DNA of 64,000 nucleotides, from the NCBI GenBank assembly GCA_964016885.1, contig OZ024742.1, positions 149,792,001 through 149,856,000 on the forward strand, given 5' to 3'. The stretch comes from Eledone cirrhosa. Lineage: Eukaryota. The position numbers were made by a program, and so were the translations under genes. Shown here piece by piece: positions 12,127-14,489 of the stretch. The notes beneath the pieces are model-generated. The model did no database searches, had not been told where the DNA came from, and was given only the letters and a program-made list of their open reading frames with translations. Numbering within the stretch: position 1 is the first letter of the stretch; each line of letters opens with the position of its first letter.

Positions 12127-14170
12127 ATCATCATCATCATCATCATCGTTTAACGTCCGTGTTCCACGCTTGCATGGGTTTGGACGGGAGTTTTCCCACT
12201 TGAGGCAAGAGTGGTTATCTTGCTCGCATAGGACTATCTGGCGGGTTTTCTACAGCTGGATGCCCTTCCTAACACCAACCACATTTACAGTGTGGGGCTG
12301 GGAGGTTTTTACCATGTTGATTGCACGGCCACATTACAGCGTGAACTGTGTGTTTTTTTTACATGACACCTACACGATCTCATTTGTTTCGGCCTGGATG
12401 TTGTGGCACCAACATAACTTTACATTGAAAGGGGCGGTGTGGATGGGGTGGGGGTAGTGGGACGGGGTGTATTTTGTTAGAGATGCCTACTGACTGTAGT
12501 AGGTTTTACTTTGTATTTAGGTAAGGCGGGTCTTCTCTATTACTGAGTGCCGCCAAAGGTCTCGGTCCAGTGACATTGTCTTGGTGAGGTGTAAGTGTGT
12601 GAGGTCGGAATTTATCAGCTCGTCCCAGGTTTTTCTGGGTCTGCCTATTCCGTGACTACCGTCTATCTTTATTGCCCTGCACTTTGTTATACAGCTATCG
12701 TCCTTCATGCGCATCACGTGACCATACCAACGTAGCCTTCTCTCGAGTAAACAACATCTGATCCCTCTTATTTCTAATTTTTTCCTTAGTTTGTTTATGC
12801 TTTGCCGTTCACGTATATTACTATTACACATCCAGCGGAGCATGCAAGCTTCGTTTCTCTCTAGTCTGCGTATATCCTCTGCACACAATGCCCAGGTCTC
12901 ACTGCCATGCAACATTGCTGTTCGTATGCAGGCATCGTACAACCTGCCTTTCATTTTTAGGGAGAACCCTTTAGCGGCTAATAGTGGTATGAGCTCTCTG
13001 AACTTTTTCCACCCAGTTCTGACTCTAGCTACTGTACTTTCAGAGCACCCTCCCCCACTGCTGATTTTGTCACCCAGGTAACGGAAGCTGTCCACTATTT
13101 CTATAGAACCCTCTGCGCAGTCGAAAGAGCTAGTAATTTTTGGGCACTTGCTGCTACTTATTGCCCCAGAACACCGGCCACATGTAAAATCTATGTTCTT
13201 AGTTAGCTTACCTGTGATCCCACTACATCTTTTATGCACCCAAACTTTGCATTTGGGACACAAAATGGAGTTTCTACCTACGCCTTTCCTACACTCTGAG
13301 CATGGCCACTTCCCGGAGGGGACTGCTGCCTTATTTTCTTTCTTACAAACTAGAACTTTAGTCTTAGCCAGGTTAATTTTAAGGCCTTTTGATTCTAGGC
13401 CGTGCTTCCATGTTTGGAATTTCTTCTCTAGCTCGGCCATTGATTCAGCTATGAGCGTTAGATCATCTGCGTATAGGAGTTCCCATGGGCAGCTGGTCTT
13501 GAACTCCACTGTTATAGCCTGGAGGGCAATAATAAATAGTAGGGGGCTAAGAACAGAGCCCTGATGAACACCAACTTTTACACTAAACTCTTCACTATAT
13601 TCGTGGTTAATTCTAACCTTGCTGACTGTTTCTTTATACATGGCTTGTATAGCTCTCACAAGCCATTCATCAACACCTAGTTTTCTAAGAGCCCACCAGA
13701 TAATGGAACGGGGGACTCTGTCGAAGGCTTTCTCCAAGTCCACGAAAGCTAAGTATAGGAGTTTACTTTTAGCTAGGTACTTCTCCTGTAGTTGTCGTAC
13801 AATGAAAAGAGCGTCTGTGGTACTTTTTCCTGACACAAACCCAAACTGCATTTCATCTAGATCAATTCGCTCTCTGATTAGTTGCGCTATTACTTTTTCC
13901 GTGACCTTCATGACCTGGTCGATTAATTTAATGCCTCTATAGTTACTCCTATCTAGGGCATCTCCTTTACCCTTATAACAGTTAACGATGATGCTGCTAC
14001 GCCAGTCCTTCGGAACAGCCCCATTCTGTATGACATGGTTGATTATCCGGGTGACCATGGTGTGTCCCACCGTACCAGATGCCTTCAGCATCTCGGCAAC
14101 TATTTCCAAAGGCCCAGCCGCCTTACCCGTCTTCATATCTTTGATTGCCTTACTTATTACACCCCCGTCC
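12127..14170 (-). mobile_element. 5'-truncated RTE-clade LINE, family B (variant Y), left arm of head-to-head dimer 1
   Basis: Open RT ORF plus ~390-bp 3' UTR ending in (GAT)n at ~12127. Confidence 0.9.
12517..14170 (-). CDS. Partial RTE ORF (RT + internal PHD finger + C-terminal domain); no true start
   Basis: [73 protein letters not shown]. The first residues of the listed 557-aa ORF come from the inverted UTR arm. Confidence 0.85.
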
Positions 14171-14489
14171 AACACCCCCACCCCATACACACCGCCCCCT
14201 TCTATGTAAAGTTATGTTGGTGCCACACCATCCAGGCTGAAACAATGAGATCGTGTAGGTGTCACGACAAAAAAAATACACAGTCCACGCTGTAATGTGG
14301 CCGTGTAGGCAACATAAAGTAAAAACCTCCCAGACCCACACTGTAAATGTGGTTGGTGTTAGGAAGGGCATCCAACTATAGAAAACCTGCCAGACAGTCC
14401 TATGCGAGCAAGACAATCACTCTTGCCTCAAGTGGGAAAACCCATGCAAGCGTGGAACACGGACGTTAAACGTTGATGATGATGATGAT
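14158..14489 (+). mobile_element. RTE family B 3' UTR only (variant X), right arm of head-to-head dimer 1
   Basis: Reverse-complement match to ~12127-12470, ending ggacgttaaacgttgatgatgatg. Confidence 0.9.

Follow-up and report, generated by a model that had tools for sequence, protein, structure and literature searches.

The analysed stretch of the Eledone cirrhosa genome (64,000 nt, hereafter the window, numbered from its first letter) contains two head-to-head fusions in which copies of one LINE family, family B, are joined at their inner ends and both 3' tails point outward. This tails-out structure is real and locally recurrent. We give an even chance to the view that each of these dimers arose in one event, in which two RNAs were primed from both ends of a break in a TA tract and the resulting cDNAs were joined.

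Dimer 1, with its flanks, occupies positions 12024-14679 and consists of a 2.03-kb minus-strand, 5'-truncated RTE-like LINE (the long arm, D1L) joined to ~320 bp of 3' UTR from the same family on the plus strand (the short arm, D1R). Its left flank is a TA/CA microsatellite (12024-12126), followed on the minus strand by the (GAT)7 tail of D1L, which reads (ATC)7 at 12127-12147, by the D1L 3' UTR (12148-12516) and by a 5'-truncated open frame of 547 codons plus stop (12517-14160). Beyond the junction (14158-14172) lie, on the plus strand, the D1R 3' UTR (14173-14474) and its (GAT)5 tail (14475-14489), and then the right-hand TA/CA microsatellite (14490-14679). Each tail abuts its TA/CA tract, with an AT overlap between tail and target at D1L and D1R and also at the short arm of the second dimer (D2R), and TA tract is absent between the two arms. 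The plus arm (14158-14489) is 88% identical to the 3' UTR of the minus arm over 346 columns; the coordinates and this match confirm an earlier note on this DNA, which had described a truncated minus-strand LINE fused to a plus-strand 3' UTR with GAT tails running outward into TA/CA repeats. The D1L frame is free of stops for 547 codons (14160 to 12520, minus strand) and is 78% identical over 547 residues to the family-A LINE described below (425 identical residues, family-A residues 492-1036). It matches Pfam RVT_1 (E 3e-31), with the RT domain at about 13348-13950 and a PHD-like Cys/His insert, scoring under the Pfam cut-off, at about 13171-13302 (both minus strand). To the left of the dimer, another LINE family is represented by a minus-strand fragment at about 11860-12023, which carries a (TAGA)n tail and has TA tract on both sides (by eye). 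A tandem array of ~606-bp units (14684-18683), which are 99.3-99.7% identical and composed of 98-bp and 25-bp subrepeats, sits directly between the right-hand tract of dimer 1 and the family-A LINE.

Family A provided the reference for the family-B frame. Its first copy (A1; 18940-22361, plus strand) is apparently intact, with one 1040-codon frame for the endonuclease, the RT and a PHD-like insert that follows the RT; the Pfam matches were PF03372 (E 3e-8) and PF00078 (E 8e-32). The second copy (A2; 23470-26139, plus strand) is 5'-truncated, has TA tract on both sides and was used as a solo-insertion control. An APE endonuclease and an RT in one long frame are thus seen in family A; the truncation of the family-B copy removes the endonuclease, and the copy's 3' end is a short tandem repeat, (GAT)n, as expected of an RTE-clade LINE. 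We take the family to be RTE on its anatomy and on general knowledge of that clade. Among the 120 homologues listed by the protein search, there was no protein labelled RTE and no family-B protein; within the same 120, the best full-length identity was 57%, the best partial identity was 74%, and the named matches were from a hydrozoan, a clam and two bacterial bins. A profile search of the window listed 24 matches to a shared UTR core from several families. The short predicted stem-loop that terminates the D1L 3' UTR has a sequence pattern common to families A, B and C. Its inner helix is 98% paired with one two-sided change, the single-sequence z-scores are only -0.4 to -1.1, and the outer helix is off by one column in some rows of the alignment.

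The second tails-out fusion of family B is located at 33848-34946. Its long arm (D2L; 33848-34515, minus strand, 668 bp) ends on the left with a tail running into a TA tract at 32606-33847, and its short arm (D2R; 34516-34946, plus strand, 431 bp) has a tail running into a TA tract at 34947-35032. The sole solo family-B copy found is a 100-bp 3' end (8953-9052, plus strand) behind the tail of a family-C element. Tails-out fusions hold 4 of the 5 family-B copies found in the 64-kb window, all five copies carry (GAT)n tails, and both dimers pair family B with family B despite the presence of at least four other related families in the window. When four independent insertions into 13 TA tracts were simulated, two same-tract head-to-head pairs were obtained in 0.34% of 400,000 runs, counted before any deletion is required. 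This null ignores local clustering and is too generous to an origin in one event, because same-family clustering does occur locally, as shown by two family-A near-twins that lie 1.1 kb apart and differ at 6 of 2649 nt. Homology between the flanks of dimer 1 and those of dimer 2 was not found, and a segmental duplication linking the two was rejected on that ground. A scan of 48 metagenome loci gave no near-identical match; the family-B UTR matched 41 nt of one of these loci only (L001), and some inverted repeat of at least 50 nt was present in 12 of the 48.

Other fused elements were seen elsewhere in the window. The segment 8616-9052 is a head-to-tail fusion at a GAT tail: a SINE-like element of family C, whose head looks tRNA-like by eye and which carries the UTR core, precedes the 100-bp family-B end on one strand. 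The segment 53320-53589 is a possible older tails-out fusion with an uncertain boundary and flanks other than TA tracts, in which a degenerate minus-strand 3' end (~230 bp) abuts or overlaps what remains of a plus-strand tail (~25 nt and GAT repeats); the tail-end match was equalled in 0 of 3000 shuffles. A weak candidate for an older head-to-head fusion of two different RTE-related families was noted at 49841-50312, where the arms meet near a palindromic hexamer at ~49978 and a (GT)54 tract stands in place of the plus-arm tail.

The four arms of the dimers fall into two lineages. In the 283 ungapped columns common to D1L, D1R, D2L and D2R, eight sites group D1L and D2R (lineage X) against D1R and D2L (lineage Y), two conflicting sites group D1L with D1R, and two more are three-state. 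The two arms of dimer 1 differ at 22 of the 283 sites, and D1R differs from D2L, its counterpart in the other dimer, at 8. Moreover, the lineages are swapped, with the long arm belonging to X in dimer 1 and to Y in dimer 2, and the position of the junction differs between the dimers (2/2). As read from these diagnostic sites, the arms of each dimer are shown to derive from two different templates or lineages, and the eight splits against two conflicting sites bear out the previous proposal that two RNA 3' ends served as templates. Three further candidates were set aside. One RNA per lineage for all four arms is unlikely, with the X arms differing from each other at 20 and the Y arms at 8 of the 283 sites (p 0.03). 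An inversion between the two junctions would not convert same-lineage pairs into the observed order (by reasoning only). Classical twin priming, with its one RNA and one tail, is contradicted by the two tails, the overlapping 3' segments and the different lineages.

At the inner junction of dimer 1, an overlap of 13 nt (14158-14170) had been proposed to fit both arms. The fit to both arms is shown for the first three of these nucleotides (14158-14160) only. On the ORF side, the codon at 14158-14160 matches family A at 3/3 nt, the next three codons match at 4/9 nt, and beyond these the match is poor; the junction codons L-D-G-G score no better than unmodified-UTR codons in a profile in which 101 of the 120 listed homologues span the site. 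On the UTR side, the 13-mer has one extra C relative to the copies at 34515-33860 and 12800-12148, and the bases that follow also differ. The usual UTR sequence at this position is not that of the 12-mer at 14161-14172, which is identical to a near-terminal UTR motif of D2L (33895-33906), these being its only two occurrences in the window. A match as long as this 12-mer was found in 1 of 5000 shuffles, a figure that is overstated since the two UTR sites are related motifs, and the unit matching the 12-mer is deleted from D1R near 14437-14440. The 12-mer is either ORF sequence that is complementary to both UTR sites, with annealing over ~12 bp and an overlap of up to 12-13 nt, or a patch templated during repair. 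Among 402 positions compared, the 20-mer ending at 14172 has the strongest predicted duplex with the partner cDNA (-17.5 kcal/mol), but that duplex is located away from the junction, at the near-terminal UTR site. For the junction of dimer 2, the formal microhomology is 0, with 3 of the 4 preceding bases in common.

Two successive insertions are a real possibility, to which we give clearly less than an even chance. In this scenario an older plus-strand copy in a TA tract was joined by a later minus-strand copy upstream, and the intervening DNA was lost, either as the end of the new cDNA was joined to the interior of the old copy or later, when a break was repaired in the TA spacer, a fragile part of the inverted repeat. 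The relative age of the arms bears directly on this. Outside the A run and the junction patch, indels are confined to the short arms (3+3, against 0+0 in the long arms; sign-test p about 0.03, by hand), as would fit an older short arm. D1R has lost 1 nt, gained 2 nt and, in the A run 14437-14440, lost a further 12 nt; this last deletion takes out the 5' strand of the outer terminal stem. Because D1R alone among 12 ends is without the 5' strand of this conserved outer stem (the search pattern also missed the copy at 8953, in which the strand is present by eye), D1R was altered since or during insertion. The short-arm indels and this missing strand are the strongest evidence that a short arm is the older one. 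Private substitutions, counts of which mix lineage differences with later mutation, also favour two steps in dimer 2 (D2R 8 vs D2L 1, p 0.04, confounded by lineage), but they do not in dimer 1, where the arms do not differ significantly (D1L 8 vs D1R 4 of 283, p 0.38). Taken together, the short-arm indels and the D2R excess suggest that the short arms are possibly older. The long arms are young, because D1L and D2L differ at only 9 of 282 nt of coding sequence, with 5 silent changes and 4 others. On the other hand, the two large short-arm deletions lie between short direct repeats and may represent slippage favoured by the inverted repeat itself.

The local landscape likewise speaks on both sides of a stepwise origin. 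In its favour, the pair A1 and A2 shows that copies of one family can cluster, a family-C head-to-head pair (35047-35378, minus strand, and 42318-42709, plus strand) is separated largely by TA tract, and the tracts flanking dimer 2 differ in motif, with 47 TAA motifs in the left tract and 0 in the right. Against it, this route requires same-family neighbours on opposite strands plus two deletions ending inside both copies, among only five copies, and the independent null stood at its low value even before any deletion. Furthermore, of the 5 other young elements in TA tracts, 4 still have TA tract at the 5' end (by eye), namely A2, the two family-C elements just mentioned and the fragment at ~11860-12023, with A1 as the one that is without it; deletion on the 5' side is therefore not the local norm.

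A second alternative, which we consider improbable, is that each dimer bridges a rearrangement: simultaneous insertions at distant sites would have had their cDNAs joined, and the dimer would mark a large deletion, inversion or translocation. The same anatomy has been described for L1 bridges (bioRxiv 10.1101/2024.08.27.596794; PMC13526784). This alternative is also compatible with the target sites. TSD-like matches of 14 nt (dimer 1) and 15 nt (dimer 2), each with one mismatch, do not reach significance, since positions drawn at random in the tracts equalled them in 334 of 2000 and 769 of 2000 draws, respectively; the match of the solo A2 control (14 nt, exact) was equalled in 291 of 2000 draws, a significance no higher than that of the dimers. 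In k-mer profiles the flanks of dimer 2 are not mutually nearest, whereas those of solo A2 fall within the top three ranks. By the same measure, however, for k = 8 and for k = 10 the tract closest to the left flank of dimer 1 is its right flank (rank 1 of 15), in a relation that is not reciprocal, and the flanks of both dimers keep a common C-on-plus polarity, a weak sign of one chromosomal neighbourhood. In addition, two large rearrangements 20 kb apart would both have had to survive in the germ line. The polarity itself was seen in 16 of 16 hand-picked TA tracts between 10334 and 42314, all with more C than G on the plus strand (e.g. 281 vs 17 at 37190-40397); it is uniform over 32 kb and is not followed by pure GT tracts elsewhere. 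Between two long TA tracts lies a 158-bp direct repeat (40500-40657 and 41190-41347; 99% identical, 690 bp apart), and an open frame resembling a Tc1/mariner-type transposase remnant (31600-32600, by eye) is cut by the TA tract at 32606.

Inverted repeats within microsatellites are hard to assemble, which is the general ground for suspecting an assembly or read artefact. We regard this as very improbable, since a read foldback predicts near-identical arms and the observed arms differ by 7-8%, at lineage-diagnostic sites; sequence quality also looks high, A1 and A2 being colinear with 6 differences in 2649 nt and the long frames being open. Least credible is a foldback of a single RNA or cDNA or the copying of a dimeric master, the earlier note having offered a foldback master element as its alternative. 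Such an origin would explain why the arms form an inverted repeat of one family but is rejected, as the nearest relative of each arm sits in the other dimer, the junctions differ, X and Y are swapped and the flanks are without homology. The different lineages of the arms and the different junctions exclude a single folded-back RNA, a dimer master common to both and a read foldback.

For an origin of each dimer in one event, the following course can be proposed. The endonuclease likely nicked both strands of the AT-rich repeat, either within the same tract or at two nearby sites with loss of the DNA between them. The two 3' ends of the break likely primed reverse transcription, each at the (GAU)n tail of a separate RNA, and the truncated cDNAs were then likely united by end joining, with fill-in starting at both inner ends; the junction would have formed by cDNA annealing or by a templated patch. 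The simultaneity, the nicking of both strands and the joining, with annealing or a patch at the junction, are what we infer from the fused structure. The different lineages, the fusion of 4 of 5 copies, the same-family partners, the 0.34% null, the 5' tracts kept elsewhere, the similar substitution counts of the dimer 1 arms, the strong predicted duplex and the human L1 precedents count in favour of this course. Conversely, the restriction of indels to the short arms, the stem strand missing from D1R, the D2R substitutions, the non-significant TSD, the tract mismatch of dimer 2, the clustering, the negative human reporter result at 6 or 0 bp of homology and the sample of two count against it. 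Dual TPRT, as formulated beforehand, stands in its two templates, on the strength of the lineage splits. Its simultaneous priming may hold, although the TSD-like matches are not significant and the short-arm indels hint at older short arms; its 13-nt annealing is supported for 3 nt in dimer 1, and dimer 2 has no formal microhomology.

The interest of the dimers hinges on their genome-wide frequency and on whether their arms are of equal age. Priming and sealing of the second end by LINEs are still argued chiefly from human L1, where two-RNA joints are rare (tumours, reporter cells). If the reading of one event is true, the new part would be that an RTE-type LINE makes such joints routinely in the germ line of an animal. 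More speculatively, and in our estimation rather unlikely, in an RTE-type family with symmetric TA targets two-RNA sealing of both ends may be the routine germ-line route, supplanting classical twin priming because a recognised 3' end would be the only place where the enzyme primes; tails-out heterodimers would then make up a large share of the copies genome-wide. A natural family that makes two-RNA joints in most insertions would offer thousands of dated junctions for direct tests, making testable the action of two RNPs on one break, the use of microhomology in 5' joining and the hiding of deletions or inversions by such joints. If the arms were instead inserted in two steps, the finding would be an ordinary outcome of insertion hotspots and fragile TA repeats.

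We found no published description of tails-out dimers of RTE elements in a literature search that left most subscription journals, Repbase Reports and supplements outside its scope, and the accessible parts of PMC9115989, PMC13282606, PMC5786205, PMC12350158 and PMC13141329 do not mention them. RTE-clade LINEs have a single long frame for APE endonuclease and RT, a microsatellite 3' tail and a 1-2-nt overlap between tail and target (PMC2887409; PMC9115989, RTE-2_OV; PMC6007223), and an RTE TSD measures 10-12 bp (PMC4245944). The Eledone elements resemble them in the single frame with APE and RT (seen in family A), in the microsatellite tail and in the short overlap of tail and target, and differ in the 370-nt UTR and in the PHD-like insert after the RT; their placement in RTE is by anatomy, not by tree. 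In classical twin priming both break ends prime and the cDNAs anneal, with one RNA, an internal second priming and one tail (PMC2912911; PMC4245944), and 5' inversions were found almost exclusively for human L1 in human cells (PMC4245944). If each dimer formed in one event, priming from both break ends and annealing of cDNAs would be common to the two, whereas the dimers have two tails and two templates.

The proposed mechanism is already known in kind from the tails-out two-RNA joints of human L1. There, two cDNAs can recombine, and two same-site events involving two RT reactions had a TSD and poly(A); in the reporter used, cDNA-cDNA recombination was undetectable with 6 or 0 bp of homology, in an assay that requires a precise junction (PMC13526784). 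Nine human L1 insertions made from two transcripts have been reported in either orientation, those of opposite orientation being read as both DNA ends extended on different templates (PMC11702581). In tumour L1 bridges, two 5'-truncated, inverted L1 copies meet at their 5' breakpoints and both have a tail (bioRxiv 10.1101/2024.08.27.596794); these bridges join distant loci in translocations and inversions, whereas the Eledone dimers are known from the fused sequence alone. The dimers are like the human two-RNA insertions in that opposite-orientation cDNAs from different RNAs are joined at their inner ends (PMC13526784; PMC11702581). The human cases come from cultured cells and are rare, with poly(A) and partly engineered homology (PMC13526784; PMC11702581), and where those cases have a TSD, the dimers have TSD-like matches within the TA-tract background. 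Unlike them, the dimers described here involve an RTE-like LINE with (GAT)n tails and a TA-tract target in an assembled animal genome, and they account for 4 of the 5 local copies.
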